Under the pieces are notes generated by a model. That model did no database searches and was not told the DNA's origin. It saw only the letters and a program-made list of their open reading frames with translations. From the NCBI GenBank assembly GCA_051747585.1, contig JBNJGH010000048.1, forward strand, positions 1 to 23,738: a stretch of 23,738 nucleotides of DNA, in the 5' to 3' direction. This document shows positions 5,959 through 23,738 of the stretch, one piece after another. The position numbers were made by a program, and so were the translations under genes. Each line of letters begins with the position of its first letter. The first letter of the stretch is position 1. This DNA is from Candidatus Rifleibacteriota bacterium. Lineage in GTDB: Bacteria > Muiribacteriota > Ozemobacteria > Ozemobacterales > Ozemobacteraceae.

Positions 5959-6017
5959 AAATAAAAAACCGCCTGAATCCAAATTTTAAAAATTAGTATT
6001 CAGGCGGTTTTTTATTT
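5959..6017. terminator. Bidirectional intrinsic terminator
   Basis: Perfect 20-bp arms AAATAAAAAACCGCCTGAAT (5959-5978) and ATTCAGGCGGTTTTTTATTT (5998-6017) between convergent genes. Confidence 0.9.
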
Positions 6018-6586
6018 CAACTTATAACGCGACTGAAAAGAAGTTTTTCATTTGGCTGGCAACTAATAACCATCTCTTTATCACAAGCTTCGGCTATAGT
6101 TTCGGCGGCGTGTTTTCCTTCAAGAGGATTAATGGTCGCAAAAATTTTCTCTACCGCAAAACCTTCGTGTTGAAGATAAACCTTAACTACCCAGAGACTC
6201 GCATGATTAGCCAATACACATTCTGAATCTCTGGTTAATTCTATACTCATTATTTCATCGAAATGAAAAGCTGAGTTTCTAATACCATGAATGCTTGTTT
6301 CTTTTAGAGTGAATTTCTTATCCCGGGTATCCATTGTTACATATTTTTTATAACTGAAAAGAATAATACCAGCCATCATAAAAGCAACTGAAACCACAGA
6401 ACAAAAAAGACAAAAACTAAACAGGGTAAAAAAAAGTTTTCTCACCAGAATCTGGATCATAATTCCGGAACCGGCGAGAATAAAAAGGCCTCCAAGGACA
6501 GAACAAACTTTAGAAGTTCTGAAAGTTACAATATCAGAATCGTAATCTTCCATTTTCATGACTTTGAACGTGCTAAGTGCTCCCAT
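6017..6586 (-). CDS. Hypothetical membrane protein (two TM helices plus a beta-rich soluble domain)
   Basis: 189-aa ORF, hydrophobic segments at about residues 27-47 and 52-77, GGGG SD-like sequence upstream, ends at the terminator. Confidence 0.75.
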   Translation of the reverse strand: MGALSTFKVMKMEDYDSDIVTFRTSKVCSVLGGLFILAGSGIMIQILVRKLFFTLFSFCLFCSVVSVAFMMAGIILFSYKKYVTMDTRDKKFTLKETSIHGIRNSAFHFDEIMSIELTRDSECVLANHASLWVVKVYLQHEGFAVEKIFATINPLEGKHAAETIAEACDKEMVISCQPNEKLLFSRVIS

Positions 6587-6874: not shown

Positions 6875-7393
6875 TTACCGGGCAATTCGAGATAAAATTG
6901 CCTCAGAATCGGTAAGAACAACCTTCTCATTAAAAATTTTCAATCCATTAGCAAGCAAAACCTCAGAAGTTATGCCTCGCCCATCGATAAGTTGCCCTGA
7001 AAAAGTTCCATCGTAAACCTGACTGGAGCCGCAAGAAGGGCTTTTACTTTTTAAAATCGCAAACCTGGCAGAGTATAGTTTTGCAAAATGAGCGGCCTGC
7101 ATTGCTCCTTTTATGAAATTGTTACTGACATCTTTACCTTTATTACTGATAATTTTTTCCTGCCCGGCTAATATTTGTTTGGCGGACCCCTGAAGTTCTG
7201 ATGGATCCCTGGGTGTGGGTAACCCTCCCAGTTGTTCCGGGCATATCGGAACAAATAATATTCCATTTTGACAGGCTTGCCTGAAAAAAGATTGAAGCCC
7301 CTTCTGCCATGCAGAAGAGGCTTTTGCTTTATAATTACATTCAACACCTGCCAGACAGGCACTGATCAGAACGATTTTATTACTTACCTGCAT
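6875..7393 (-). CDS. DUF523 family Fe-S protein (2-thiouracil desulfurase/TudS-like)
   Basis: ISACLAGVECNY, ICPEQLGGLPTPR and LKSKSPSCG motifs. Start moved to ATG 7393 (MQVSNKIVLISAC); the track's 30 extra residues lie inside the upstream gene. Confidence 0.88.
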   Translation of the reverse strand: MQVSNKIVLISACLAGVECNYKAKASSAWQKGLQSFFRQACQNGILFVPICPEQLGGLPTPRDPSELQGSAKQILAGQEKIISNKGKDVSNNFIKGAMQAAHFAKLYSARFAILKSKSPSCGSSQVYDGTFSGQLIDGRGITSEVLLANGLKIFNEKVVLTDSEAILSRIAR

Positions 7394-9140
7394 CACCTTT
7401 TTCTTCTGGCGGTGCTCTGAAAATTGCCTTTTCCGAATTTTTTTTATCTTTAACCGGCTGAGCACCATCAATATTTTCGGCAACAGGCGGCGCTTTTCTT
7501 AATATTATAGATTTGTTCAAATCCGATGTTTTATTAACTGAATTGAAACTGTTATCATTGCCAAGTATTCCCTGATTCAAGTCAGCTTCTTTATCTGTAT
7601 CTACTACAATTTTTTCTTCTGCAACTGTTGGAAAGTTCTGTTGCACCTGCAAAATAGCCGGCCCGATCAACAAAACCGAAATACTGGGAAAAATAAAGAA
7701 TACAAGCGGAACAAGCAGTTTAACGGGTAGTTTGTTAACTCTTTCTTCTGCCAGAATCATTCGTTGATATCTCATTTGCTCTGCCTGGGCTCTCAAAGTC
7801 GGACCAATTTCTGCCCCTAGACGTTGGGCCTGAATCAGTGAACTGACAAAAGAGAAAAACGAAAGCACTCTAACTCTTTCTGCCATATCGGCAAGAGCTT
7901 CTTCGAGACTTTTACCAACTTTAATATCAGCAAGAAACATTTTGAATTCGACAATAATATCAGTATTGCGTTGTTTTTCGACCACCTTAGCAATACCGCC
8001 TGTAAGATCAAGACCGGACTCTATAGCCAGCGACAAAAGATCGATTACATAAGGAAGCTCGAATTCAATATTTTTCTGGCGTTTACGAATTAAATGGGCA
8101 AGATAAATTCTTGGCAACCTGAAACCTATAGGTATCATTAAAATCAAAACAAGCCAACCAATAAAGCCAATGGCTAATGGATTGATAAAAAGCGCAACAA
8201 GAATAATAAAAAGCAAAGCTGAGCACTCCATCAGTCCAATGAATTCTTCTGAAGAAAACTCATTTGCCTTATTTGAAGCTTCAAGAAGAAATTTTACTTC
8301 ACGCCTGATTTGCTGGAACCATTCACCGGGAATATTTTGATTAAGAGAAGCCATGATACGCAGCAATGGGCGAAGCGGCTTCCACCTTTTCTGTCCCTGA
8401 GCTCTAGCCTCATTAACATTGATCATTGCTTCTTCCGCATCAGGAAGAATAGAAGCAGTCATGCGATTAATGAACAATAATCCCACAATAGCAGCTGTTA
8501 AAGAAGTGATAAGAACGATCTGCCCATAAGGATTTTGAAGCATCGGCAAAAGATACTGGGGATGAAAAGTGGTAATTACAACTGCAAGTACTAGAGGAAT
8601 AGAACCGACCAGGTTACCCGAAAGTCTTGCATGAGCTGTTCCGGCAACAACTTTACCCATTATTTTCTTTCTTTCGGAAACGGTTAAAACAATCTGCCGG
8701 TATAAATCTTCAAGGTTTCCCCCGGTTTCCTGCTGGAAAATAGTTGCATTGACTGCAAGCTTAAGATCGGGGCTGGGAACTCGAGCAGCAAGATTGCTTA
8801 ATGCTTCGACCATTGGCACCCCAAGCCTTCTTTCCTGGACAAGAGACCTGAATTCGTTACTAATAGGCGGAGGGGTCGAAACTGCTACGAGTTCAAAAGC
8901 TTGATCAAGGTTTCTGCCGGCTTTCAAACTTGAACTGATCATCAGCAACACTTCAATTAGCTGATCTTCCAGGCTGGTACTCGTTACACTCTGTAAATAT
9001 TTTGATTTCCGACTGTCGTCTTTATCTTTGCCAGACTTTTTGAGATCGAGACTTAAGTCAAGCTGATCCTCAAGAAAAAAATAAATACCTACAATAACTC
9101 CCAGGATTGCTAAAATCTTAATAGCCGGAAATAAAGTCAT
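7380..9140 (-). CDS. Fused TadB-TadC inner-membrane platform protein (two T2SSF-family domains)
   Basis: TadB-like half: QLIEVLLMISSSLKAG, ETGGNL, TAHARLSG, PQYLLP. TadC-like half: LPRIYL..RQKNIEFELPYVIDLL...ESGL, QAQRLG, AEERVNKLPVKLLVPLVFFIFP. ATGA overlap with the ATPase gene. Confidence 0.9.
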   Translation of the reverse strand: MTLFPAIKILAILGVIVGIYFFLEDQLDLSLDLKKSGKDKDDSRKSKYLQSVTSTSLEDQLIEVLLMISSSLKAGRNLDQAFELVAVSTPPPISNEFRSLVQERRLGVPMVEALSNLAARVPSPDLKLAVNATIFQQETGGNLEDLYRQIVLTVSERKKIMGKVVAGTAHARLSGNLVGSIPLVLAVVITTFHPQYLLPMLQNPYGQIVLITSLTAAIVGLLFINRMTASILPDAEEAMINVNEARAQGQKRWKPLRPLLRIMASLNQNIPGEWFQQIRREVKFLLEASNKANEFSSEEFIGLMECSALLFIILVALFINPLAIGFIGWLVLILMIPIGFRLPRIYLAHLIRKRQKNIEFELPYVIDLLSLAIESGLDLTGGIAKVVEKQRNTDIIVEFKMFLADIKVGKSLEEALADMAERVRVLSFFSFVSSLIQAQRLGAEIGPTLRAQAEQMRYQRMILAEERVNKLPVKLLVPLVFFIFPSISVLLIGPAILQVQQNFPTVAEEKIVVDTDKEADLNQGILGNDNSFNSVNKTSDLNKSIILRKAPPVAENIDGAQPVKDKKNSEKAIFRAPPEEKGDAGK

Positions 9141-11218
9141 TGTGCTGTTTCCTCCTCAGGCTTTTCAACCGGTTTTTGTTTAAATAAATTGGCATGCTTC
9201 TCAAGAAAATCACCCGGAATAGCTTTCATAAATTCGGGTATTGTTCCAGTTGGAACGATCTCGCCTATTACCCGACCATCTTTATCTATCCATTTCTTTT
9301 CAAATTTGAAAAGAGTATTGGCTTTTATAATCGTATCTTCAATTCCGGTTACTTCGACAACTTCAAGTAATTTTCGATTACCGTCAGCCAGACGGCTGGT
9401 CTGAACTACAATATTTACAGAGCTGGCAATTTGTTCACGTATCGCCCGCAGGGGCAAATCTACACCTGCCATTAGAACCATTGTTTCCAGGCGAGCCAGG
9501 GCATCGCGGGGAGAATTTGCATGCAATGTGGTTAACGAGCCATCATGTCCGGTGTTCATAGCCTGCAACATATCGAGAGCTTCGGCTCCGCGACATTCTC
9601 CTACGATAATTCTATCTGGTCTCATTCTCAGAGCATTTCTTACCAGATCTCTTATCGTTATCTGGGTTTTCGCTTCTGTGCCTTGCTGGCGTGCTTCAAG
9701 ACGTCCCAGATTAGTCTGCCCCAGCTTTAACTCAGCTGAATCTTCTATGCAGATAACCCTTTCGGTTGGCAAAATATAATGAGACAAAACATTTAACAAA
9801 GTTGTTTTTCCTGAACTTGCTCCGCCTGAAACAATTATATTTTTCTTCAGGTTGACACAAAGCTCAAGGAATTGGGCCAGTTCAGAGGTAAGAGATTTAA
9901 ATCTGAAAATCAGATCATCCATGCCGTAAGGCACCTTTGAAAACCTTCTGATCGTAATCATCGGACCGGTTAAAGACAGGGGCGGAATTATTGCATGAAC
10001 ACGGGAGCCATCAGACAACCTCGCGTCTACGTAAGGAGTTCGCTCGTTAACCGTACGACCTACCGGCATAAGAATTCTCTCTATAACTGTGCGAACATGG
10101 TCTGCATTGTTAAACTTTCGATCGGTCAGAAGTAATCTGCCATTCTTTTCTACAAATATTTTATCAGGACCATTTACCATGATTTCATCAACTTCGTCGT
10201 CTCGCATAAACTCTTCAAGTGGACCTAATCCTAAGATCTCATCTAAAAGATATTTTTTTACTTCCGACTCGGCATTGTGACCCGGGATATCAGGAGGCGG
10301 AGCCTTTTTAAAAGCAAGTTCGATTTTTTGCTCAACCTGATCTCTAAGTTCGTGATCACTCATTCCGTATTTTTTTTCCATTTCGCTAAGAACATCTGCT
10401 CTAAGATTGCGAAGATAGTCTGCAATTTCTTCGGGAAAAGAATCAAAATTATTTTTTTCTTTGCCGGGTAAAAATCCTTCAGCCGGCATTTGCAATGCTT
10501 TTTTTACCAGTTCGGCAAAACTCTTTTGAACAACTTCGTTATCGTTATTGCCGGTAATTTCATGTCCAAGCGGTATTGAGTGTTCCAAATCAAACAAACT
10601 TGCTTCTTCGTTATCATCCTCAGGGTCTACATGATTTCTGAGCCAGTAAATTTTATCCTTGATTTTCATGCGACGCCGAGCTTCTTCAAGAAACTTCTGA
10701 GCATAAGATGGAGATGGAGGCTGAGAAGTGTAGATATAAAAAAGAACGTCAGCCTTATACATTAAGAATAAAGGTAGAGGAGTCAGTTGAAATGGCAGAT
10801 CAAAGACAACATAACCATCTAACTGGGTAAACAGATCTAAAAAATGATTCAATGATTCACTCAAATCATGTTCGTTTAAGTTAAAACGGGTTTCAAGGGT
10901 TTCTCCGTGATTATTGCCGCAAAATGGAATATAAAAAACTCCATCGATTTGGGAAAAGAATTTCTTGATCGATCTGGGTGTCATGCCCACCCAGTTACCC
11001 ATATAAAAATCAAGGTAACTGTTTTTCAGTTCAGTCTTTTCGCCAATTGTTTCGCAGAGCAATGAAGGTTTAAGGTAGTTGTACTCTATCAAGGCAACGG
11101 GCTTCCCGGTTTTCTCTTTTAATGCTTTGACAAAATTGTATGCAATAAAAGACTTGCCTATGCCGCCCTGAAAACTTGTAAAGACGAATTTAGTCGCTGG
11201 CTTTTCTGCTTTTCCCAT
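9137..11218 (-). CDS. cpaF: CpaF/TadA pilus assembly ATPase with an N-terminal CpaE/TadZ (MinD/ParA-like) domain
   Basis: C-terminal part: GLGPLE..DEIMVNG, Walker A GGASSGKTT, IEDSAEL, LRMRPDRIIVGECRG, MNTGHDGSLTTLHANS. N-terminal ~245 aa: FTSFQGGIGKSFIAYN and YVVFDLP. Confidence 0.92.
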   Translation of the reverse strand: MGKAEKPATKFVFTSFQGGIGKSFIAYNFVKALKEKTGKPVALIEYNYLKPSLLCETIGEKTELKNSYLDFYMGNWVGMTPRSIKKFFSQIDGVFYIPFCGNNHGETLETRFNLNEHDLSESLNHFLDLFTQLDGYVVFDLPFQLTPLPLFLMYKADVLFYIYTSQPPSPSYAQKFLEEARRRMKIKDKIYWLRNHVDPEDDNEEASLFDLEHSIPLGHEITGNNDNEVVQKSFAELVKKALQMPAEGFLPGKEKNNFDSFPEEIADYLRNLRADVLSEMEKKYGMSDHELRDQVEQKIELAFKKAPPPDIPGHNAESEVKKYLLDEILGLGPLEEFMRDDEVDEIMVNGPDKIFVEKNGRLLLTDRKFNNADHVRTVIERILMPVGRTVNERTPYVDARLSDGSRVHAIIPPLSLTGPMITIRRFSKVPYGMDDLIFRFKSLTSELAQFLELCVNLKKNIIVSGGASSGKTTLLNVLSHYILPTERVICIEDSAELKLGQTNLGRLEARQQGTEAKTQITIRDLVRNALRMRPDRIIVGECRGAEALDMLQAMNTGHDGSLTTLHANSPRDALARLETMVLMAGVDLPLRAIREQIASSVNIVVQTSRLADGNRKLLEVVEVTGIEDTIIKANTLFKFEKKWIDKDGRVIGEIVPTGTIPEFMKAIPGDFLEKHANLFKQKPVEKPEEETAQ

Positions 11219-11312: not shown

Positions 11313-12197
11313 ATGAATCCAGCAATAAAAGTTGAAAATTTAAGCAAAATTTATGGTCAAAAAAATGTAGTAGATCATATTTCCTTTGAGGTCGAATCTG
11401 GCCAGATTTTTGGTTTTCTCGGCCCAAACGGTGCGGGAAAAACAACTTCTATTAGAATGATGATTGGCGAAATCGCAAAGGATGATGGAAATATTGAAAT
11501 CAATGGGCTTAAAATTCCACAGCATCTATCGAAACTAAAGAATATAATTGGTGTTGTGCCAGATCATCAGAACTTATATGACCGCCTTACAGTCAGACAG
11601 AATCTAGAATTTTTTGCTGAATTAAACAGTGTCGAGCACTCGAAAATCGATGAAATTCTCGCTAAAGTTTTTTTAGGCGAACATCAGCACAAACAAACTT
11701 ACAATCTGAGTCGCGGGCTTCGGCAAAGGACTCTTATTGCCCGAGAATTACTTCATAATCCATCGATATTTTTTCTCGATGAACCAACCTCGGCACTTGA
11801 CCCCAATTCCGCCCTTTTAATACGCGACCTGGTCAAAGAATTAAAAGCAAATGGAACTACGGTTTTTCTAACTACTCACTATATGGAAGAAGCAGATGCT
11901 TTATGCGATAATCTTGCAATAATGCATCAGGGAAAAATAGTTGCCTGCGGCAAATCTGAAGAACTCAAAAAAAATTATGCCCACAACTCAATGATCATAG
12001 AGTATCAATCGAACCAGGCGATTCAATCAGCGGAATTTTCGTTAACTGACCTGGAAAGCCGAAAAAAAGCAGCAAAACTGATTGAGAACAATGAAATACT
12101 TAAAGTACATTCCCAAGAACCCTCTCTTGAAGAAGTTTTTCTTAATCTGACCGGTTCGGAATGGAAAAGTGAGCAGGAGAAAAAGAATGAAATTTAA
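11313..12197 (+). CDS. ABC-2 type (multidrug-like) exporter, ATP-binding subunit
   Basis: Walker A GPNGAGKTT, signature LSRGLRQR, Walker B FFLDEPT, H-loop LTTHYMEEA, C-terminal PSLEEVF. Confidence 0.95.
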   Translation: MNPAIKVENLSKIYGQKNVVDHISFEVESGQIFGFLGPNGAGKTTSIRMMIGEIAKDDGNIEINGLKIPQHLSKLKNIIGVVPDHQNLYDRLTVRQNLEFFAELNSVEHSKIDEILAKVFLGEHQHKQTYNLSRGLRQRTLIARELLHNPSIFFLDEPTSALDPNSALLIRDLVKELKANGTTVFLTTHYMEEADALCDNLAIMHQGKIVACGKSEELKKNYAHNSMIIEYQSNQAIQSAEFSLTDLESRKKAAKLIENNEILKVHSQEPSLEEVFLNLTGSEWKSEQEKKNEI

Positions 12198-13333: not shown

Positions 13334-14902
13334 GTGAAATACCTTGGTTTTGATGAAATAGTTAGAAATCTGCTTGTTTATTTAAAGGGGCAAATACCTT
13401 CTTTAAGTTCAAAGCATGCCAAAGAAGATATACTTAAACAGGTACAGAATATTACCTTTACCCTTAGAACAACAATCGTTCAGCTTGAAGGCGCTGCTTT
13501 TCATGACCGCGGCAATGAAGATAACAGCAAAATCAAAAAAGAGCTGGAATCGCTGAAGCAAACCAATGCAAAGCTTGAAGAGTCATTATTCCTGGAAATG
13601 AACAAAACCCAGGAACTCAATGATAAGCTTACCAAAGCGAACAAAGATTTTGATTCACGACGCAAGGAAATTGAAGAACTAGAACGGCAACTAAAAGAAA
13701 CCCGACAACAGCTCGAGCAACTTGAAAATTCTCCAAAAGAGGTTGTTAAAGAGGTTGTCAAAGAAGTGCCGGTAGAAGTACAAGTAGACAATACAAAGCA
13801 AATCGATGAACTGAAATCTGAAATCTCTGAACTTGAAACAAAGCTTGGCAAAAACGATGACACAATAAGCAATCTTAAGCAAGCACTGCAAAATAAAGAA
13901 ATTGAGCTTACCAAAACCAAAGAAACTCTGATGGAAGCCATAAAAATGGATAAATCAGAGATAGAAAACCTCAAATCCAGGCTTTCAGAGATAGACTCAG
14001 CCAAAAACGAAAACCAAAACCTCAGAACAAGAATCGCAGAGCTCGAAGCGGAGCTTAGATCAATGCCCTCACCTGAGGTTTATAAAAATAATCTGGCAGC
14101 TGCTGAAGCTAAAATCAACTTCCTTGAAACTGCTCTCGAAGACGCAAAAAATGAGTTAAGTAACTTTCAAGAAAAAGCTTACGATAAAAACCCAGAAATT
14201 CTTGTTGAAGAAAAAGAAGAATTGCAACAAAGAATTGTTGACCTTGAGGCCACTTTACGAGGCTTGATTAATTCCAGAGAAAGGGATTCCAAAGCAGAAA
14301 AATTCGCTTTCAGCCCTGAAGACTGCATATTCCTGTTTGAAACTCTGACCTCTACAGCAAATCGCCTGAGTTTGAGTCCCGAAAACCGTGACATTTATCA
14401 AAAAGCAAAAAAAGGGATTGAACTGTTGCAGGGCTCTAACGCAATACAACAGGTGCTTACAGTCGGACAAATGTTTGATCCAAAAATTCATAAAGCTGTT
14501 AAGTCATTCCGGAGCGAATTCCTTCCCGACAATACTGTTATTTTTGAAGAAAACGCGGGATTTATTTCAGGTAGCAGACTTATTCAAAAAGCTCTTGTAT
14601 GGGTCGGCAAATCAAGCTTTATCTGTACAGAATGCAAAAACCCATGCCGCAGTCATGAATTTTTCTGTCCCAAATGTGGTCTTGAATTAACTGCTCCAGA
14701 TGGCACCAGCAAAAGAGATCTCAACATTCACCCAACAACAGTAGAAAGCAATCTGCCCCTTCTCGACGAGTTGATCAAACAGAATAATTCCAAAGCCGCC
14801 AATGCTCTTATAAAGCATATTGCAAAAGAGCACCCCGACAACCCTGAAATTATTAAAAGACAAAATCTACTGTTAAAAGCAGAAAACCAGGTAGTAAACT
14901 AA
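13334..14902 (+). CDS. Long coiled-coil protein with a GrpE-like domain, Zn ribbon and TPR-like end
   Basis: E/K/L heptad region at about residues 60-315; VGQMFDPKIHKAV...NTVIFEENAGF.SGSRLIQKALVWV resembles the GrpE beta-domain; CTEC-x10-CPKC. Confidence 0.75.
   Translation: MKYLGFDEIVRNLLVYLKGQIPSLSSKHAKEDILKQVQNITFTLRTTIVQLEGAAFHDRGNEDNSKIKKELESLKQTNAKLEESLFLEMNKTQELNDKLTKANKDFDSRRKEIEELERQLKETRQQLEQLENSPKEVVKEVVKEVPVEVQVDNTKQIDELKSEISELETKLGKNDDTISNLKQALQNKEIELTKTKETLMEAIKMDKSEIENLKSRLSEIDSAKNENQNLRTRIAELEAELRSMPSPEVYKNNLAAAEAKINFLETALEDAKNELSNFQEKAYDKNPEILVEEKEELQQRIVDLEATLRGLINSRERDSKAEKFAFSPEDCIFLFETLTSTANRLSLSPENRDIYQKAKKGIELLQGSNAIQQVLTVGQMFDPKIHKAVKSFRSEFLPDNTVIFEENAGFISGSRLIQKALVWVGKSSFICTECKNPCRSHEFFCPKCGLELTAPDGTSKRDLNIHPTTVESNLPLLDELIKQNNSKAANALIKHIAKEHPDNPEIIKRQNLLLKAENQVVN
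13736..13768 (+). repeat. In-frame 12-bp tandem repeat encoding KEVV-KEVV-KEV
   Basis: AAAGAGGTTGTT AAAGAGGTTGTC AAAGAAGTG. Confidence 0.7.
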
Positions 14903-15079: not shown

Positions 15080-18000
15080 TTAACGTCTCTGATCAAATAA
15101 CCAGACCTTAACATCTTTGTTAAAGCCATCTAATTCAAACTCGGTAACGGCTTCTCCGTTAGACTCGCGCACAAAACCCATAACGCCGTTTTTACCAAGG
15201 CCAACATTGTAAGAACCACCGCCAGAAATTTGAACAGGCTTGAATCCCGGCAAGCTTACCGAAGAATGAATACCCTGCAAATCAAGCCCCTTGAAACCAT
15301 ACTGCGCAGGGTCTTCATTAAGATGATCATTTATATAAAGGCTCATGCCCCACCTCGATAAGGTAGTATCAAAATTCTCGGCGGTAACGGATTCTACATT
15401 TGATACACCCGTCAACCCCGACTTAACAAGAGCTCTGGTAATATCACGATAGGAGGTCCCATACCTTCCCTCTTGCGCAAGGAACCGTATTAATAGATAA
15501 GATAACCCATAGCTGTTTATACCCGACCACTCGGTAACTGACAGATCAGCAAAGTTTTCCTGGGACAACTTGATCAATAAAGCGGTGTTTTCGTCGCCTG
15601 AAAAAATGCCATAACCGCACACTTCCTCAGAATACTTTGATAAACCCTCGTTAAGCCAGGTCGCTTCAAAAACTCCCTGACCTGCATTTATTCTTTTCTG
15701 CCAGAAATTGACCATATGTTGAAACTCATGGGCAAGAGTTCCATATCTGGTAATATCGTTATTTAAGCTGTATTTTACGTAAAACATTTTACGTCCGTTA
15801 CTTTCTCGCAGCTGAATGTCAGAAGGTTCATTGGCAAACAAATCTGCGCCATAAAAAATACCTGCAATTCCAGGGCTCAAAGCATCTGTCAACAAAATTG
15901 TTATTTGAGGCTGACCATCAGGACCGACTTCAGGCTCATCACCAAATACATCTCGGACTTTTGGCAGAATTCCTTCTTCAAAACGCTTACGAACCTCTGA
16001 GACAACAGTTGAAGACGGCGAATTAATCGCATTGTCTACATAAATAAAAACGTTTTCGCTTTCTCCATAGCGAGTTGCCTTTATCTGATTGTTTGGATAA
16101 GGAGTCGAAGTTGCAACCGATTCATAGGCAGGAATGTAAAAGTCTTCAACCTCATCAGCTCTTTGTTGTGCTATAACACTGCCTCTCAGGCCGGTTTTGC
16201 CAAACATGACTGAAGGCATTTTTTTTGAGGCCAATCTTTTTTCCAGTTCCCGAAAAGCTGCTTCAGGTGAAGAATCAAACCATTCAATCGCCGTTTTCTG
16301 ACTGGCTCTAACCGTAAAATCCGCTGAATTGCCAGCTGCAACAGCAACTGCAAAAGAATCTCTACCGGTTTCCAATCCCGAAACAGAAACGGTTACATTG
16401 TCTCCGGGCACAGCTGAAATCGGAAAACCACTTGATTTGAAATTATCAGGCACAGGTATTTCAGATGCTATGGTAAAGCTGGTGGTCATACCTTCAGTCA
16501 TAAGATTACCGGCCGGGTCACGTATTTTATTATCTGCAATTACAAACTCATGATAACTGCCCGGAAGCCATCCACCTGAAGGAAGAAAGCTGGCAACAAC
16601 TTCATTATTCCAAATCCAACTGCCGCCCTGAACAGGGCTGAACGAGAAAGCGGTTTCTGCAACACTTTTGTCTACAGGCTCATTGAAGGTAACTTCGACG
16701 ACGGCGTCTGAAGATACCGATAATGCACCATCTTCAGGTTTTACCGACAATACTTCCGGCGCTGTCTGATCTGTATCGGTAAGGGTGTAAAAGCTGTAAA
16801 TCTCGGACATAATCGGCTCTGTAACTGAATCATCTGCAGTAATCTGCCAGTAATATTGCCGCCCTTTTTCAAGCTCGTTTATAACGGCAAAGCTTTTTTC
16901 CGATAAATTTCCTGCCAGCATGGTTGAAGGCGGCGAAACCGTATCTAGATACAGCTCATAAGTTACTTTATCGCCGTCGGGATCACCACCGGACCATGAA
17001 AAAACCGGTTCCAAAGAAACATCGGTCGCTGCATTCTCCGGAAAAATCGCTACCGGCACCTCTGGTGCCTGATTAATTTTGGCAGCCGTAGTAAACGACC
17101 AAATTTTCGAATCGGCATTGGTTAAACCATCTTCATCTCGCGCAATCACCTGGAGAAAATATCTGGTAGAATTTTCCAGATATTCATCGGCACTGTAAAC
17201 CGGAGCTACGAGGTTCTCTCCTTTTTTAGCCAGAGGAAAAGTTTTTCCGAAGTAAACATCATAAGTCAGACTGTCTCCATCAGGGTCTTCGGCTGTCCAA
17301 CGCATTTGCACATCTATGGCAACATCAGTCGAGCCACTTGCCGGATAAGCCAGAACAGGATTTTGTGGCGGGTTATTAGGCGGTGCATAGGTAGAAAACT
17401 GCCAAACCGGGCCTTTGGTTTCTTTACCCCTGTTATCGGCTGCGATGATCTGCCAGTAATAGGTTTGCTCGGCTTCGAGATTTTCAACCTGATAATTGGT
17501 ATTTCGGGTGCTGGTTAAAAGCTCCAAGCTTTCACTGTCACTGCCAAGATAGAAAGAATAAGTTACTATATCGTCGAGGTCCGGATCTCCTCCGGTCCAG
17601 GCAAACCGAAATGAAAGAAGTTGATCTGTAGCCAGATCTTCAGGAAAAGGATTTGCCGGCTGATAAGGCGAAAAATTATCTTCATCGCCTGTGGTGAACT
17701 GCCAGATTGATGTTTGCGAAATTGCCCCATAGGGATCTCGGCTGATAATTTGCCAGTAATAAATCGTTTTAACTTCGAGATTCCTAATCTGAAATTCAGG
17801 CTGGCTCAGTTTCTCGCCCACCAGCTCAGGCTCCTGCCCTCTCTGGTAAAAAAAGACGTCATAATTCAATTGATCACCATCAGGGTCACTGCCGGACCAT
17901 CTCAAGGTTACCTCTGTCCCCATATTGTCGCTTAAATTAGCGGGAACAGGATCAAAAGCAACTTCTGGCGGTTTATTGTTGGGATTTACAGGTAATCCGC

Positions 18001-18934
18001 CACCGGCAAGCACGTCAATTTCGACTTCAGATTTAGATTCGGCACCTTTTTCATCTGTAGCTGTAACTGTAATGGTTACTTTACCTTCAAAATCTGGAGC
18101 GGTAAAAATTGTATTTGCCCCTGTATCCTGATGAAATTTCCCGGCACTGCATGACCAATGGTAAGTTAGTTGATCACCGTCGGGGTCGAAGCCAGAAGCA
18201 AAAACAGTACCCTCATTATTTGTTCTAATAGTTTTAAAACTCTGCTCAATTGAAACTATTGGAGCACGGTTTTTATCTACAGAAGTAAGAGGAGTGAGTT
18301 TAACAAACAACCGGCCTCTTTTAAGAGAACTAAAATCTAAAAGGAAAGCCGTCTCTTTGTAGCCGGTTGCAGAAATAGTTACCGGCCAAACGCCTTCGGG
18401 AAAAGGGCCGATTTCTACATCGCCATTACCGGATGAAAGATGTTCCCTGCCCCAGATCTTAACTCTGGCATTAGCTAAAGCCACCTTCGATTTTAAATCG
18501 GTAATATTGAGTTTTACTTTGTAGGGAGCATTTTCTAACTGAAGCGGATCAGATATTTTTAAGGTTTCATATTCTCCGGTAAGTTTGATCTGGTCTGTTC
18601 TTTGCTTGTAATTGTGTATACCTGATACCAGTTCGGCGATAAGATGATACTTACCCGCTGGTATTTCGTTAAGAATAAAATTGCCATCTTCGTCGGCGGT
18701 AGCATAAAACTCAGGTTTTTCTTCAACAAATACTTTTGTTCCCTTGACAGGAACATTAGTGCTCTGAGCCCTTGAATTAAGGTTAACTACAGGCGAAATT
18801 ACCCTGCCCTCGATATTTGCTACTATTGTTGCGGGAGTGGGTTCTATCCAGTCACTCAGCCCCCCGTCAGTGCTGCCGCAACCTGTTATGAAAGAAGCAA
18901 GAGCCGTAAACAAAATGATGATTTTTATTTTCAT
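15080..18934 (-). CDS. Large lipoprotein: carboxypeptidase-regulatory-like, Ig and four Fn3-like repeats, an SbsA-type Ig domain, and a C-terminal HExxH zinc metalloprotease (M30-like)
   Basis: Lipobox ITG-C19; repeats with W.x(2-3)DPDGD..Y...YYWQI; DQTAPEVLSVKP...VTFNEPVD...RDPAGN; TLAHEFQH (HEFQH at 15716-15730) with downstream WLNEGLS. Confidence 0.85.
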   Translation of the reverse strand: MKIKIIILFTALASFITGCGSTDGGLSDWIEPTPATIVANIEGRVISPVVNLNSRAQSTNVPVKGTKVFVEEKPEFYATADEDGNFILNEIPAGKYHLIAELVSGIHNYKQRTDQIKLTGEYETLKISDPLQLENAPYKVKLNITDLKSKVALANARVKIWGREHLSSGNGDVEIGPFPEGVWPVTISATGYKETAFLLDFSSLKRGRLFVKLTPLTSVDKNRAPIVSIEQSFKTIRTNNEGTVFASGFDPDGDQLTYHWSCSAGKFHQDTGANTIFTAPDFEGKVTITVTATDEKGAESKSEVEIDVLAGGGLPVNPNNKPPEVAFDPVPANLSDNMGTEVTLRWSGSDPDGDQLNYDVFFYQRGQEPELVGEKLSQPEFQIRNLEVKTIYYWQIISRDPYGAISQTSIWQFTTGDEDNFSPYQPANPFPEDLATDQLLSFRFAWTGGDPDLDDIVTYSFYLGSDSESLELLTSTRNTNYQVENLEAEQTYYWQIIAADNRGKETKGPVWQFSTYAPPNNPPQNPVLAYPASGSTDVAIDVQMRWTAEDPDGDSLTYDVYFGKTFPLAKKGENLVAPVYSADEYLENSTRYFLQVIARDEDGLTNADSKIWSFTTAAKINQAPEVPVAIFPENAATDVSLEPVFSWSGGDPDGDKVTYELYLDTVSPPSTMLAGNLSEKSFAVINELEKGRQYYWQITADDSVTEPIMSEIYSFYTLTDTDQTAPEVLSVKPEDGALSVSSDAVVEVTFNEPVDKSVAETAFSFSPVQGGSWIWNNEVVASFLPSGGWLPGSYHEFVIADNKIRDPAGNLMTEGMTTSFTIASEIPVPDNFKSSGFPISAVPGDNVTVSVSGLETGRDSFAVAVAAGNSADFTVRASQKTAIEWFDSSPEAAFRELEKRLASKKMPSVMFGKTGLRGSVIAQQRADEVEDFYIPAYESVATSTPYPNNQIKATRYGESENVFIYVDNAINSPSSTVVSEVRKRFEEGILPKVRDVFGDEPEVGPDGQPQITILLTDALSPGIAGIFYGADLFANEPSDIQLRESNGRKMFYVKYSLNNDITRYGTLAHEFQHMVNFWQKRINAGQGVFEATWLNEGLSKYSEEVCGYGIFSGDENTALLIKLSQENFADLSVTEWSGINSYGLSYLLIRFLAQEGRYGTSYRDITRALVKSGLTGVSNVESVTAENFDTTLSRWGMSLYINDHLNEDPAQYGFKGLDLQGIHSSVSLPGFKPVQISGGGSYNVGLGKNGVMGFVRESNGEAVTEFELDGFNKDVKVWLFDQRR

Positions 18935-18965
18935 TCAGCTGTTAATAATTCCTTGATAAAAGGTG

Positions 18966-20402
18966 TTAAGAGGCCATAGCTTCATCGATCAGGTCAATGT
19001 TAGTATTGGCTCGATCACGCAAATCAAGTGCCCGAAGTTTTGAAGAGCCTTGATTAACTAAGAATTTAGCTGCATTATAGGCCTGTACTTCTTGAGTTTC
19101 ATCACCATATTCACCCATCCATTCAACATCTATATTGTCATAGGCGTTTTTTAAGGCTGTGGCTTCTTCTCGACCGGCTTCTCCTTCCAGAACCTTGTCC
19201 CCTTCTTCGTCAGTATAAGTTTGATCCTCCAAATCAGTAGCCATATCAATCATTAGTTCGGTTGGTTCAAAACCGTCTTCATCCTTCATAGATTCATTCA
19301 TTGCTTTGATGGCTCGATCTTGAAGTTTCATATCATAAGCTTTCTTATACAGATCTTTTTCTTCACCCGACATTGAGGAATAACCATCGATTGATTTACC
19401 ATGAAATTCTCGTTCTTTTTCTGCTGTATAGCCTTGAAGTTCCTCAACTGCTGCTCTTGTTTCTTCAACATCATCAGCTCGTTCAAGCTGTTTTTTCATA
19501 TCCTTGACTTTCTGGCCCTCACTTTTACTCCAGAATGCCAAAGTATCAAGAAGACCACTTCCTGTATCGGTGTTATCAATATTGTCATTAATATCATTCA
19601 ATGCATCGAGCGCCTGTTGCAGAATATCCTCTTGTGTGGTTTTCATTCCAGCAAGCTGATCGTCATTCATGGTCATCAATTCTTCAAGATCAAATGTACC
19701 ACTTCCCATTCCAAGTGAAGTATCCTGAGATGTATCCTCTTCCATCACATCGTCTGTTTCCATTTGTGCCAGATCAAAATTTGAAACATAGGTTTTATTG
19801 GTGTTTTTATAATATTCATCACGCATCACCAAAGATGTTCGTTCGATGTGAAACATTTCATTTTTGCTGCCTGCGATTCTTTTTTTACCGGTTAACTCTA
19901 TATCCAGCATAGCCTCTCGACCAGCCTTGAAGTCTTCATCGGTAGCTTCAAGGTCTGCCGCCTCGAGAGCAGCTTCATCTACAGACCTTACAATAGCTAC
20001 ACTGTCAATATTGGGAGACAGGATTTTAAGGCTATCGTCAGTTTTACGGGTAAGCAAACCGCTATTTAACTCATACTCGACATTCATAGTTGAGTCCTGA
20101 GCAATTTTACCGTCTTCTGTTTCGATAAAACGTTCAAAAGTAATTTTCATTGCAGTGCCATCTGGACTCTGAGCACCAGGCGGAGCTTCAAAGCTTCCTT
20201 CTTTAATGGCTTTAAAGTCCTTTTCCATATTATTGGAAGCCATGCGCAATTCACTTTCCAGGCTCTGTTTGGCATGCGAACGGGCAATTTGCCTTTGAAC
20301 TCTCATCCAGACTCCATAAATAGCGGTCAAGACAATGGTAGATAAAAACAACGCTACCATTACCTCTATTAAGGTCATTCCCTTTCTTTTAAACCTGAAC
20401 AT
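18966..20402 (-). CDS. Type IV prepilin-like protein (PilW/GspJ-like) with a large acidic helical C-terminal extension
   Basis: Class III signal MFRFKRKG|MTLIEVMVALFLSTIVLTAIYGVW with E5. Confidence 0.85.
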   Translation of the reverse strand: MFRFKRKGMTLIEVMVALFLSTIVLTAIYGVWMRVQRQIARSHAKQSLESELRMASNNMEKDFKAIKEGSFEAPPGAQSPDGTAMKITFERFIETEDGKIAQDSTMNVEYELNSGLLTRKTDDSLKILSPNIDSVAIVRSVDEAALEAADLEATDEDFKAGREAMLDIELTGKKRIAGSKNEMFHIERTSLVMRDEYYKNTNKTYVSNFDLAQMETDDVMEEDTSQDTSLGMGSGTFDLEELMTMNDDQLAGMKTTQEDILQQALDALNDINDNIDNTDTGSGLLDTLAFWSKSEGQKVKDMKKQLERADDVEETRAAVEELQGYTAEKEREFHGKSIDGYSSMSGEEKDLYKKAYDMKLQDRAIKAMNESMKDEDGFEPTELMIDMATDLEDQTYTDEEGDKVLEGEAGREEATALKNAYDNIDVEWMGEYGDETQEVQAYNAAKFLVNQGSSKLRALDLRDRANTNIDLIDEAMAS

Positions 20403-20416
20403 TTTGCTCCCCCCCC

Positions 20417-20905
20417 TTAAATAGCTTCAGAATTGTAATAAGAATTTGCAGCTCTTACAACTCTTCTGCCAAACCTTTCGTCATCTTTGGCTCCCTTATC
20501 GCGCCAGAAAATTTCAACTTCGAACCAGACCTCGGAAATCTGGTCTAAATCGTTTTTACGAACGGTTAAATTAGCTTCACAGCCATAATCTTTCATGGTG
20601 TCACTGTTTTTTTCAAAAAAAGTTTCAATACTTTCGGAAGTTTCTTTATAAAATTGCGGATGAACAGTGAAACTTTCACCAGTGGTAAGATCAGTATAAT
20701 GTCTCTGATAAACTTTAAAAGGCACATGTTTGCATTCTTCGATCAGCTCTTGGGCCAATCTGGTGGCTTTGGCATAATGACCAATCTTAGCTGTAGAGGT
20801 CGCTCCATAGTCAACCGTTCTTATGATAGGAATAAAAGCAACCGCAATAATAAAAGCAGAAATTACTATTTCCAGAAGCGACAAACCTTTCTTATCAGCA
20901 ATCAA
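20417..20905 (-). CDS. Type IV prepilin-like protein (PilV/GspI-like), 162 aa
   Basis: DKKG|LSLLEIVISAFIIAVAFIPI, then ATRLAQELIEE. Start moved to TTG 20905, which has a GGAGG SD and a TTGA overlap with the upstream stop. Confidence 0.85.
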   Translation of the reverse strand: MIADKKGLSLLEIVISAFIIAVAFIPIIRTVDYGATSTAKIGHYAKATRLAQELIEECKHVPFKVYQRHYTDLTTGESFTVHPQFYKETSESIETFFEKNSDTMKDYGCEANLTVRKNDLDQISEVWFEVEIFWRDKGAKDDERFGRRVVRAANSYYNSEAI

Positions 20906-23652
20906 AATGACCTCCAGGAAGCCCAAAGCGGACTGAAAGATACATGATAACGCCTGGGATCAAATTTACCCCTTTCAGGATGCAGGCTTGCAAGAGAGCT
21001 TCTGACTCTTGAAGACACATAATCAACGGCAACAGTACCACTCATTGCGGCTTTACTAAACTGATTCGTTACCCAGTTGCCAATAAAATGCATACTGGAA
21101 TCGGCATGAACATATAAACCTTTGTCGGTATAAACACTGCCCTGAATTTCTCTTTGTACCCCGCCGTCCAACACTATCAATCCACCGTTTCTTATCATGA
21201 GAGTAAATACGGTTAAATCATCGGCAGTACGATCCTGAACTTTGATGTTAGAACCAAGATAAAAATTTCCGCTGCAAACAATCATCCCTTTACCACAAAC
21301 ATTAAATTCCCCATCGAGACCGGGCGGGTTAAATGGATTCGCCGAATCACCTACCGAGCCCGAAATATATGTAATCCCATTTAAGACAAATATTTTTTTC
21401 CCGTTGACTTCTGTCATCCTGTTTGGCAAATCATCCAGGAAAGCCTGATAATTCTCGTAATAATAAGTAGCTTTTTTGGCATATTGCTCAAGGGTATAAA
21501 GATTGGGCGGCATATTTTCAAGTTTGGCCGGATCATATTCATAAGTCTCAAGGTCTATATCGTCATTTTCGTCATTCGCCTTCAAAGGGGTTAAATTATA
21601 ATCATACTTGGTTAGAACTTCCATCGTATACCAGAGAGGAATTACTAATGGAGGCGGTGGAATTACCAGAGGCGGGACAGATGGAATCACAAGCCTGTCC
21701 ATCGGATTCAGACCGATAATACACATTTTCCATCTCCGGTATTTCTTCAGAACGTTTCCTTCAATTTCTCTGGTAAGCGTAGGATAAAAGCCTGCATAGC
21801 CAAAGAAGTGTGTTTTATTTGCTCCTACTCCAGTATTTGGAATTGTGGCCATCCAGTTATTAGTGCCCATATAGGCCATATCCCATTGCTGAAATGCCTT
21901 GGTTACACCTGCCACAGAAGGGGGCACCACCTTGTCGACCAATGGTTTCAATGCAAGCTCAATTGCAACTGCGATAGGATGTGCGCTTAATCTTCCTACA
22001 TCGGGCATAATATTGATTCTACTTGGGCCAACCAGTTCTTTTAGATAATTTTTTGGAGTTTCAATACTTTTACTCATGTCTTTTGCATATTCAAGCTTGT
22101 AATCGTTTTTTACTGAAACGGAAAAGCCATCAGTGCTTGTCTGCCCGGTATTTCCTCCTGTCATGCCAGAGGGAACATCGCTTGATGTGCTGGTATTTCG
22201 GCGCGAAACTTCAGCATTAACATTGTATTTACCGCCAGCCAGCGCCATGCGCGTTCTACTGCTGAGAATCAGTGCGGTTTCCATACCACCCAGGGTTCTT
22301 ACAATCGTCCCGCTGTCATCACCGGTTACTCTAGGCGCATTCCAGTCACCTACCATCCCTACATTACAAACCAGAGGCTGGGTACCATCAGAACTTTCAT
22401 CTATATAATTAACTCTTATTAATCCCGGAACCTCACGACTTGCAAGCTCTTCTTCGGTTAGTTCGGTCGGCCCGGGCAATGCAACCTCTTTTATTTTGTT
22501 CCAAAGTCCGCTATAGTCGTAATTACTAACGAAAAACTGACCGCCATAGTTATTAAATGAAATTTTGTTATTGGCAAAGTTCCCTATAAAGCAGCTGTAC
22601 ATAGATGCAGGAGGTTCGCAGTCAGCAACTTTAAAATCTTTTACAGCGGCAACCCGCCTTTTTGCAGTATAGCCGTCCTTGTAGGTTATGGAAGCTTCAC
22701 TTTCAAGTTTTATCTGCCCGTATTTTTCCAGGTATTGTTCGTAATCAGAAGTATCGAAAGTTATACCCGAAGGCCATAAAACTGACGGATCTGTTGGGAT
22801 GTTTATTTTATCTTTATCGAAAACAATTTCAATCGGATACCGGCGTTCCCCACCGCTTAATAATTCATTAATCAGCATTTTGGCCATAAAATCAATGCTG
22901 GTAAGTTCTTTAAAAGATCTTGGCTCCCCGGCTATGTTTATTTCGGGCATAAGTTTATCAATTATGCCTGCAACATTTATGTTAATAATAGTAAAACCAC
23001 CAATGCTGATGGGTATTGAAAAGCCAAGCCAGCTTAAATCATCCGGGAACCCTATCTGAAGTGGCGAATAACCTTCTCCATTGAGAAAATTCTCTACATC
23101 GGGTCGCATATTCCAACCGATATCGACTCCGGGAACTTTGAAATCAGGATAATCAGAGCCGGGTGCAATTCGGAAAGCCTTTTCGACGTTTACTTTTACG
23201 TTCACGTCATACTCTTCAATGCCTTCCCGGGTCATATATTCTACTATCTTATCAAGACGATTTTCGTCGTCGCCTTCCTGGAGTTCTTCTTTGGTTAAAA
23301 TAATTTCTTCAGTCACGCTATCTGGTAATTGTAACAACTCATCGGAACCAAGATTTCCACCTAAACCAAGAGTGACCCCTGAATCAATCTTAGCAGGCAA
23401 ACGAAGCTTAACAGCCAGAGAATCCGCATCGACCTCAGCAGGATCAATTTCATTTATTTTATCCGAAATAATACTCATGGCTCTTTCGAGAGCTGCTTCT
23501 GCAAGACTGGCTGCGTGAAGTCCTTTGACCGACATGGTTGTCTGCCTGCCTTCTTCAATGGTAGAGGTCATAAACATTGTAGATGCAAAAATAATTACAC
23601 CTAAAACGCCAATTACAATAACAAAAGCGCTACCCTGTTTTTTACGGTTCAT
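20902..23652 (-). CDS. Very large PilX/GspK-like pilin protein, about 916 aa
   Basis: MNRKKQG|SAFVIVIGVLGVIIFASTMFM (no E5) followed by AASLAEAALERA. Start moved to ATG 23652, with GGAGG 8 nt upstream. Gly/hydrophobic beta-repeats at the C-terminus. Confidence 0.8.
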   Translation of the reverse strand: MNRKKQGSAFVIVIGVLGVIIFASTMFMTSTIEEGRQTTMSVKGLHAASLAEAALERAMSIISDKINEIDPAEVDADSLAVKLRLPAKIDSGVTLGLGGNLGSDELLQLPDSVTEEIILTKEELQEGDDENRLDKIVEYMTREGIEEYDVNVKVNVEKAFRIAPGSDYPDFKVPGVDIGWNMRPDVENFLNGEGYSPLQIGFPDDLSWLGFSIPISIGGFTIININVAGIIDKLMPEINIAGEPRSFKELTSIDFMAKMLINELLSGGERRYPIEIVFDKDKINIPTDPSVLWPSGITFDTSDYEQYLEKYGQIKLESEASITYKDGYTAKRRVAAVKDFKVADCEPPASMYSCFIGNFANNKISFNNYGGQFFVSNYDYSGLWNKIKEVALPGPTELTEEELASREVPGLIRVNYIDESSDGTQPLVCNVGMVGDWNAPRVTGDDSGTIVRTLGGMETALILSSRTRMALAGGKYNVNAEVSRRNTSTSSDVPSGMTGGNTGQTSTDGFSVSVKNDYKLEYAKDMSKSIETPKNYLKELVGPSRINIMPDVGRLSAHPIAVAIELALKPLVDKVVPPSVAGVTKAFQQWDMAYMGTNNWMATIPNTGVGANKTHFFGYAGFYPTLTREIEGNVLKKYRRWKMCIIGLNPMDRLVIPSVPPLVIPPPPLVIPLWYTMEVLTKYDYNLTPLKANDENDDIDLETYEYDPAKLENMPPNLYTLEQYAKKATYYYENYQAFLDDLPNRMTEVNGKKIFVLNGITYISGSVGDSANPFNPPGLDGEFNVCGKGMIVCSGNFYLGSNIKVQDRTADDLTVFTLMIRNGGLIVLDGGVQREIQGSVYTDKGLYVHADSSMHFIGNWVTNQFSKAAMSGTVAVDYVSSRVRSSLASLHPERGKFDPRRYHVSFSPLWASWRSF

Positions 23653-23666
23653 TTTTATAGCCTCCA

Positions 23667-23738
23667 CTATTCAAACTTGGCCGGGAATTCAGCCAAAGTT
23701 GTAGCCAATCCTCCTGGCACCTCGGTCGGTTTGATATA
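23667..23738 (-). CDS. 3' end of an upstream gene of the same operon (partial)
   Basis: Open frame YIKPTEVPGGLATTLAEFPAKFE-TAG ending just before the SD of the next gene. Confidence 0.55.
   Translation of the reverse strand, partial: YIKPTEVPGGLATTLAEFPAKFE

Follow-up and report, generated by a model that had tools for sequence, protein, structure and literature searches.

In Caulobacter, the in-situ model of the Cpa/Tad machine has a CpaB ring that encloses a CpaF hexamer, six dimers of CpaE and three pairs of CpaG with CpaH, and a C-terminal amphipathic membrane helix is given as a feature of TadZ/CpaE proteins (PMC13170226). Bdellovibrio bacteriovorus has an essential fusion, TadZA, which lacks a receiver domain and binds RomR, a polarity hub (10.64898/2026.07.08.737194). 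We analysed a 23,738-nucleotide stretch of DNA from a Candidatus Rifleibacteriota bacterium (contig JBNJGH010000048.1 of assembly GCA_051747585.1), which we refer to as the window and which is contig C48 of the source genome, designated G000. It carries a two-gene Tad motor, tadZA-tadBC, in which TadZ is fused to TadA and TadB to TadC. The fusions themselves are modest news; the interesting part is that two Tad motors of different origin stably coexist with one set of envelope genes.

The order tadZ-tadA-tadB-tadC is kept in two open reading frames (ORFs). Both ORFs and their ATGA overlap, first proposed in a sequence-only reading of the window, were confirmed, as was the lack of any flp, cpaB, secretin or prepilin peptidase gene beside them. 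The motor genes comprise the following features.

9137..11218, minus strand: tadZA, a TadZ(ParA/MinD)-TadA(CpaF) fusion ATPase of 693 amino acids (ORF, Pfam, CpaF structures 8rjf/8rkd/9e24)
10484..11218, minus strand: TadZ-like domain, residues 1-245 of TadZA, with the P-loop SFQGGIGK(S/T) (alignment, profile search)
9239..10255, minus strand: TadA/CpaF ATPase core, residues 322-660 of TadZA (Walker A, Asp box, Walker B and His box align with CpaF)
9137..9140, minus strand: ATGA stop/start overlap of tadZA and tadBC, pointing to translational coupling
7380..9140, minus strand: tadBC, a TadB-TadC fusion platform of 586 amino acids (six predicted membrane helices, low-confidence C-terminal tail)
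8571..8942, minus strand: TadB-like T2SSF domain of TadBC (T2SSF match, homology)
7665..8045, minus strand: TadC-like T2SSF domain of TadBC (T2SSF match, homology)

The inventory of type IV filament genes in G000 gave two Tad motors but a single set of Tad envelope genes. TadA-class ATPases and TadB/TadC sets each number two, together with one RcpC (CpaB; the remaining SAF matches resemble NeuB and FlgA), eight secretins, one of which has a Tad-type N-domain, one tadV, one tadE/tadE/tadG set and one Flp pair. Contig C38 holds a complete canonical locus consisting of tadV, cpaB, cpaC, receiver-CpaE, tadA, tadB, tadC, DUF192, two tadE and tadG, labelled by Pfam matches, homology and gene order. 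The two Flp genes lie apart from it on contig C47 (G000:C47:20560-21200, L182). Across the phylum there are two Flp types, a conserved major one and a divergent one with a basic leader, the latter of which can be missed by Pfam Flp_Fap. The genome further yielded 24 T2SSE matches, about ten PilB/GspE ATPases with their own platforms, and 73 non-Flp prepilin matches over the cut-off. A single ORF at G000:C111:4780-6348(+) has both T2SSF and T2SSE matches and fuses the platform and ATPase of a different type IV filament system. The earlier suggestion that the motor drives pilins encoded elsewhere fits this inventory, with Flp, tadE/tadG, tadV, cpaB and the Tad secretin all located elsewhere in the genome. 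To call it an undescribed type IV filament variant was too strong, since all of its domains are standard Tad parts and a complete canonical tad locus is present.

The ancestry of the motor was assessed with IQ-TREE on 84 TadA domains; about 50 further rows, near-redundant or fragmentary, did not enter the tree. The fused ATPases formed a clade (100/100) that joined row P0151 (100/96) and next P0149 with eight unfused ATPases of families f8-f11, a grouping that is not firm (94/64; FastTree 0.98). The phylum's canonical TadA fell beyond a 98/90 branch, in a separate clade (95/91) surrounded by rows from Bacillota and Chloroflexota. A constraint uniting the family's fused and canonical ATPases was rejected (approximately unbiased [AU] test, p = 5e-5), as were wider fused/canonical groupings (p = 0.018 and p = 0.002), which were named after the tree had been seen. 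These trees indicate that the fused motor is not a duplicate of the canonical motor and belongs to a separate lineage. The TadB and TadC halves also grouped with the f8-f11 genes (0.95 and 0.92), which are unfused tadA-tadB-tadC triplets without TadZ in 8/8 genomes of these four sister families; the fetched flanks of the triplets held no cpaB, secretin or Flp match. Because the f8-f11 motors group with the fused motor, the orphan motor is older than the family, and the fusion of the platform followed. In Omnitrophota and unclassified bacteria, related TadZA genes are preceded by cpaB and/or a secretin gene (L086, L117 and L122), which suggests, by inference, that envelope genes were lost from a tad locus that had once been complete. 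A single origin with five TadZA rows of Bdellovibrionota type was only weakly rejected (AU p = 0.037), in a test where the group was chosen after a first tree had been seen and the deep branches are weak. The named homologues were all from Ca. Riflebacteria or unassigned bacteria.

Single ORFs of 1500-1790 amino acids with three tandem TadA ATPase domains (three T2SSE stretches) were observed in family f9, at L162:4025-8554(-) and L163:4172-9511(-) and also on G077:C56, G077:C12 and G079:C115. Such an ORF is possibly a covalent half-hexamer. The f9 genomes that encode them have 7-13 TadA-like matches. L171 (f8) has at least two.

The ATPase of TadZA matched Pfam T2SSE at residues 330-606 (E = 1e-55), with an additional weak CbiA/ParA match, and was closest to CpaF both by sequence (E = 5e-99) and by fold (8rjf, 8rkd and 9e24; E = 1e-43, 37-40% identity). 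A profile of residues 1-245 built from 18 orthologues and compared with the Protein Data Bank matched MinD (3q9l, E = 5e-4) and 3fkq (E = 3e-3), the latter of which we take to be TadZ of E. rectale. The same profile matched CpaE-type proteins in neighbouring tad loci, and the domain matched ParA/MinD clusters in Atlas at 0.95-0.96. It combines, as TadZ/CpaE proteins do, a ParA/MinD fold with a deviant Walker A, here N-terminal to TadA. There is no N-terminal receiver domain, the P-loop beginning at residue 15, and by inspection the KIKxLLFG end of canonical CpaE has no visible counterpart; in the predicted monomer model the domain runs into a low-confidence linker. The signature lysine of the KGGxGK motif serves ATP-dependent dimer catalysis. 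In TadZA this lysine is replaced by Gln in 30/30 sequences, in all of which Q17, G18, G19, G21 and K22 of the P-loop are invariant; among the other TadZ/CpaE P-loops listed, Lys is found in 26/27 and Arg in P0151. A scheme of complementary P-loops (canonical Arg, fused Gln) was rejected, as canonical CpaE has GKT in 10/16 rows. When the fused TadZ domain was modelled in complex with canonical CpaE, ATP and Mg, the median was 0.25, below the mark of 0.32, which speaks neither for nor against their pairing.

TadBC has the makeup of a Tad platform, with two T2SSF domains, the first TadB-like and the second TadC-like, encoded directly after tadA. It departs from the description of tadB and tadC as two separate single-domain genes (PMC6668835). 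In the predicted membrane layout, the TadB N-terminal hairpin and the TadC N-terminal anchor helix are both absent, and because these have been dropped, both T2SSF domains would lie on one side. A fold search returned PilC/GspF domains only (E above 0.006), and an Atlas search returned only single-domain clusters and no fused cluster. Out of at least 601 distant loci scanned, 80 were kept; nine of these have TadZ-TadA fusions and none has a TadB-TadC fusion, some loci ending early. The long TadC relatives searched yielded two unrelated proteins, P0295 and P0296 (1124 and 1449 amino acids), in which an AAA_35 domain is joined to TadB and TadC. The TadB-TadC fusion is rare, not unique.

Both genes were retained throughout the family. 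The TadZ domain profile was matched in 49 of 50 family relatives and in 0/36 genomes of other families. TadBC was full length and in a single frame in 32 of 36 relatives; two were partial, one was split at an N gap and one, in a 70%-complete genome, had no match. Canonical tadB/tadC were also matched in all 35/35 relatives with a TadBC match, and RcpC, present in 43 of 50 family relatives, occupied a single site in each of these. Comparison of 26 loci (the window included, two from G006; flanks of 0-12.5 kb) found cpaB, secretin, tadV, tadG and Flp in 0/26 within the fetched flanks, with one weak TadE-like match (E = 4e-4). When the ATPase and platform were compared with three or four relatives, the proportion of nonsynonymous differences (pN) was 0.06-0.10 and that of synonymous differences (pS) 0.73-0.88. 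The ratio of the corresponding rates (dN/dS) was 0.03-0.04 in both computable TadBC comparisons; dS was saturated in 10/13 comparisons, hence the few values. Across nine relatives, identity was 67-91% for the TadB half (canonical 73-85%), 69-93% for the TadC half (canonical 81-92%) and 75-87% for the fused ATPase (canonical TadA 88-94%), compared with 62-72% for MurC (five values). The TadZ domain is the exception to this close conservation, at 33-53% identity versus 56-81% for canonical CpaE, with its P-loop still invariant. These results show that tadZA-tadBC is under strong purifying selection and is not degenerate; it is probably functional.

We favour, at a probability of roughly 0.55, the reading that tadZA-tadBC is an old, intact second motor that shares the canonical pilins, CpaB ring and CpaC pore under its own control. 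We infer this sharing because there are two Tad motors but one CpaB and one Tad-type secretin. TadZA-TadBC would plug into the sole CpaB-CpaC conduit and, with Flp and TadE/G processed by TadV, build or retract the Flp pilus that the canonical motor also serves. If the Caulobacter in-situ arrangement (PMC13170226) is taken as a guide, six TadZA chains would assemble into a hexamer that docks on three copies of TadBC, with six fused TadZ domains per ring in place of twelve free CpaE, and the covalent TadB-TadC pair would prevent exchange with the canonical TadB or TadC. The TadZ part of the fusion would likely be a nucleotide-binding adaptor for a positioning protein, as Bdellovibrio TadZA is with RomR. 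Tad pili are thought to be driven by one bifunctional ATPase, and two unrelated motors per ring and pore would suggest that motors are exchanged or share out the work. As a natural single chain in which the heterodimer is fixed, TadBC could conveniently serve in work on the unsolved platform structure and in tests of the 6:3:3 model, and the 1:1 TadZ-TadA fusion would test the need for twelve CpaE copies.

Several points weigh against sharing. The common use of ring, pore and pilins is read from gene counts and not from physical linkage, and co-occurrence was counted among kin, which are non-independent. The G000 assembly, estimated at 93.6% completeness, is spread over 330 contigs, and a second CpaB could escape detection if very divergent. 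In the sister families, genomes that carry the unfused triplet show 2-5 matches to RcpC, and the one-ring argument fails there. G000 also has its many non-Flp prepilins and seven further secretins, the unfused triplet of f9 lies directly behind non-Flp prepilin genes, and in Bdellovibrio the extra tadA copies are dispensable (10.64898/2026.07.08.737194).

A more tentative scenario, possible but not one we would lean on, is that two motors of different ancestry run one Tad pilus through a single channel: an acquired TadZA-type engine, having lost its envelope genes and been joined into two chains, would swap in beneath the resident CpaB ring and be dedicated to retraction or switching. Alternatively, this engine would power a hybrid of Tad and type IVa systems with non-Flp pilins. 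If true, such a swap-in or hybrid motor would break the one-bifunctional-ATPase rule for Tad pili. We consider it unlikely that the Tad-type motor is part of a hybrid machine assembling non-Flp (PilV/W/X-, GspG-like) pilins via one of the seven non-Tad secretins or none. Prepilin genes with a readable N-terminus do lie directly upstream of the unfused triplet in four of five f9 loci, the fifth being cut by a contig end; a GspG-like gene lies 2 kb upstream of the triplet in f8, a PilX/V/W-like set lies 9 kb upstream of the motor within the window, and prepilin matches abound in G000. However, 22.5% of random G000 positions have a prepilin gene within 9.2 kb, and the best G000 matches of the f9 pilins differ from the window's prepilin set. 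A PilW-like gene was found in only 7/26 family loci, whose flanks are often too short, and the genome's PilB/GspE ATPases already come with platforms of their own. An old link between the motor and the window's PilX/V/W-like genes was rejected as unsupported by the f9 pilin matches and the random-position count.

An improbable alternative is a division of labour in which the orphan motor would be reserved for retracting (or extending) the Flp pilus, much as PilT serves type IVa pili. It would account for two old, conserved motors serving one ring and pore, and a fused platform would prevent motor mixing. Yet one CpaF both extends and retracts Tad pili (10.1101/616128), PilT shares a platform whereas the fused motor has its own, the sequence holds no directionality feature, and family f3 has a single TadA in 9/9 genomes. 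Very doubtful is a further proposal in which the motor uses a divergent second Flp and makes a distinct filament or a periplasmic pseudopilus. The second Flp type with a basic leader was present in five of six family genomes examined, but a comparable one was present in 4/4 examined f3 genomes, each with one TadA. The second Flp does not track the second motor because these f3 genomes carry it too, and the notion of one Flp per motor was dropped. That the pair is a degenerate or idle paralogue of the canonical locus under relaxed selection, the counter-case raised with the sequence-only reading, is hardly credible: the TadZ domain diverges faster than CpaE and has lost the signature lysine, and the ATPase diverges somewhat faster than canonical TadA, but the TadZ domain is kept in nearly all relatives, pN is low against pS and dN/dS is low where computable, the TadB/TadC halves are about as conserved as their canonical counterparts and more so than MurC, the apparent breaks in G007 and G017 fall at assembly N gaps, and the fused motor is not sister to the canonical one in the tree tests.

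The motor genes are flanked by the following features.

6875..7390, minus strand: DUF523 (PF04463) / 2-thiouracil desulfurase gene, a conserved neighbour (Pfam; 25/26 loci)
7295..7323, minus strand: hairpin of 13 pairs plus a U run, a predicted terminator inside the DUF523 coding sequence (z = -3.4)
11313..12197, plus strand: divergent ABC ATPase gene, a neighbour outside the unit (Pfam; 18/26 loci)

The claim that the unit is bounded by the ABC gene and DUF523 held in part: both neighbours are present and the ABC gene is divergent, but DUF523 is co-oriented, its start overlapping the end of tadBC by 11 bases, and marks no orientation boundary. Its adjacency is weak evidence of shared function because general synteny is high here, and no evidence of a role of DUF523 in the motor was found. 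In G006 the tadBC-DUF523 region occurs twice (L050 and L051, G006:C100) with identical scores and one tadZA truncated, possibly an assembly repeat. The hairpin starts 57 bases past the tadBC stop and would end the two-gene tadZA-tadBC transcript; ribosomes re-initiating on DUF523 could mask it. A terminator-like hairpin of different sequence recurs in 11 loci of four genera, in a variable loop of the DUF523 protein. Pairing was 81%, with two-sided changes in 8/10 pairs, although the 11 loci were picked from 25 for showing the hairpin and the covariation is partly selected for. RNA contigs from two runs of one study, short and matching at 99% or more, lie on both genes and one spans the junction, which is not proof of transcription; none from these two runs lies on DUF523. 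A promoter scan was at chance level (13 versus 11.8 expected).

Other genes were observed nearby. In 22/26 loci the gene after DUF523 encodes a membrane protein with two helices and no clear family assignment (189 amino acids; window 6017-6586, minus strand). A 522-amino-acid coiled-coil protein with a GrpE match and a zinc ribbon (window 13334-14902, plus strand) is near the motor in 17/26 loci, and hrcA/grpE/dnaK lie downstream of the unfused triplet in sister families f8 and f9. Positions 15080-23667 of the window, minus strand, hold the PilX/PilV/PilW-like prepilin genes (921, 169 and 478 amino acids) and, after them, a gene for a lipoprotein-like protein of 1284 amino acids that carries Fn3/Ig repeats and has a peptidase-like end with HExxH.

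In the literature searched, with subscription journals and the Bdellovibrio supplement (Figure S7, tables) outside its range, no description was found of a paired tadZA-tadBC system or a TadB-TadC fusion. The possibility that the double fusion is widespread and already characterised was half borne out: TadZA is on record from Bdellovibrio (10.64898/2026.07.08.737194), and both fusions occur across the family. As in Caulobacter Cpa/Tad (PMC13170226), the same four motor parts occur in the same gene order with matching ATPase motifs. The Caulobacter motor consists of four chains (CpaE 12 : CpaF 6 : CpaG/H 3+3) from one locus with cpaB, cpaC and pilins (PMC13170226), whereas the motor here is two chains at fixed 1:1 ratios with no envelope genes. 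TadBC resembles PilC/GspF and archaeal ArlJ-type platforms in having two T2SSF domains per chain, in a B-C order that is the reverse of the unsplit archaeal ancestor (PMC6668835). Like flp-2 of Sinorhizobium meliloti (PMC10934763), tadZA-tadBC is a second Tad motor set in a genome whose first cluster is complete, and neither set includes a secretin gene in its cluster; unlike here, flp-2 has its own pilin, cpaB and peptidase, a separate secretin locus and unfused genes (PMC10934763). The Bdellovibrio system (10.64898/2026.07.08.737194) likewise has a ParA/MinD-like TadZ fused N-terminally to TadA without a receiver domain, and tad genes dispersed over the genome. In contrast, Bdellovibrio TadZA is the main motor inside tad locus 1, with tadB and tadC separate and a K/R-GGxGx(S/T) motif (10.64898/2026.07.08.737194), whereas here Gln replaces the Lys/Arg, the motor is the second in its genome and its platform is fused.

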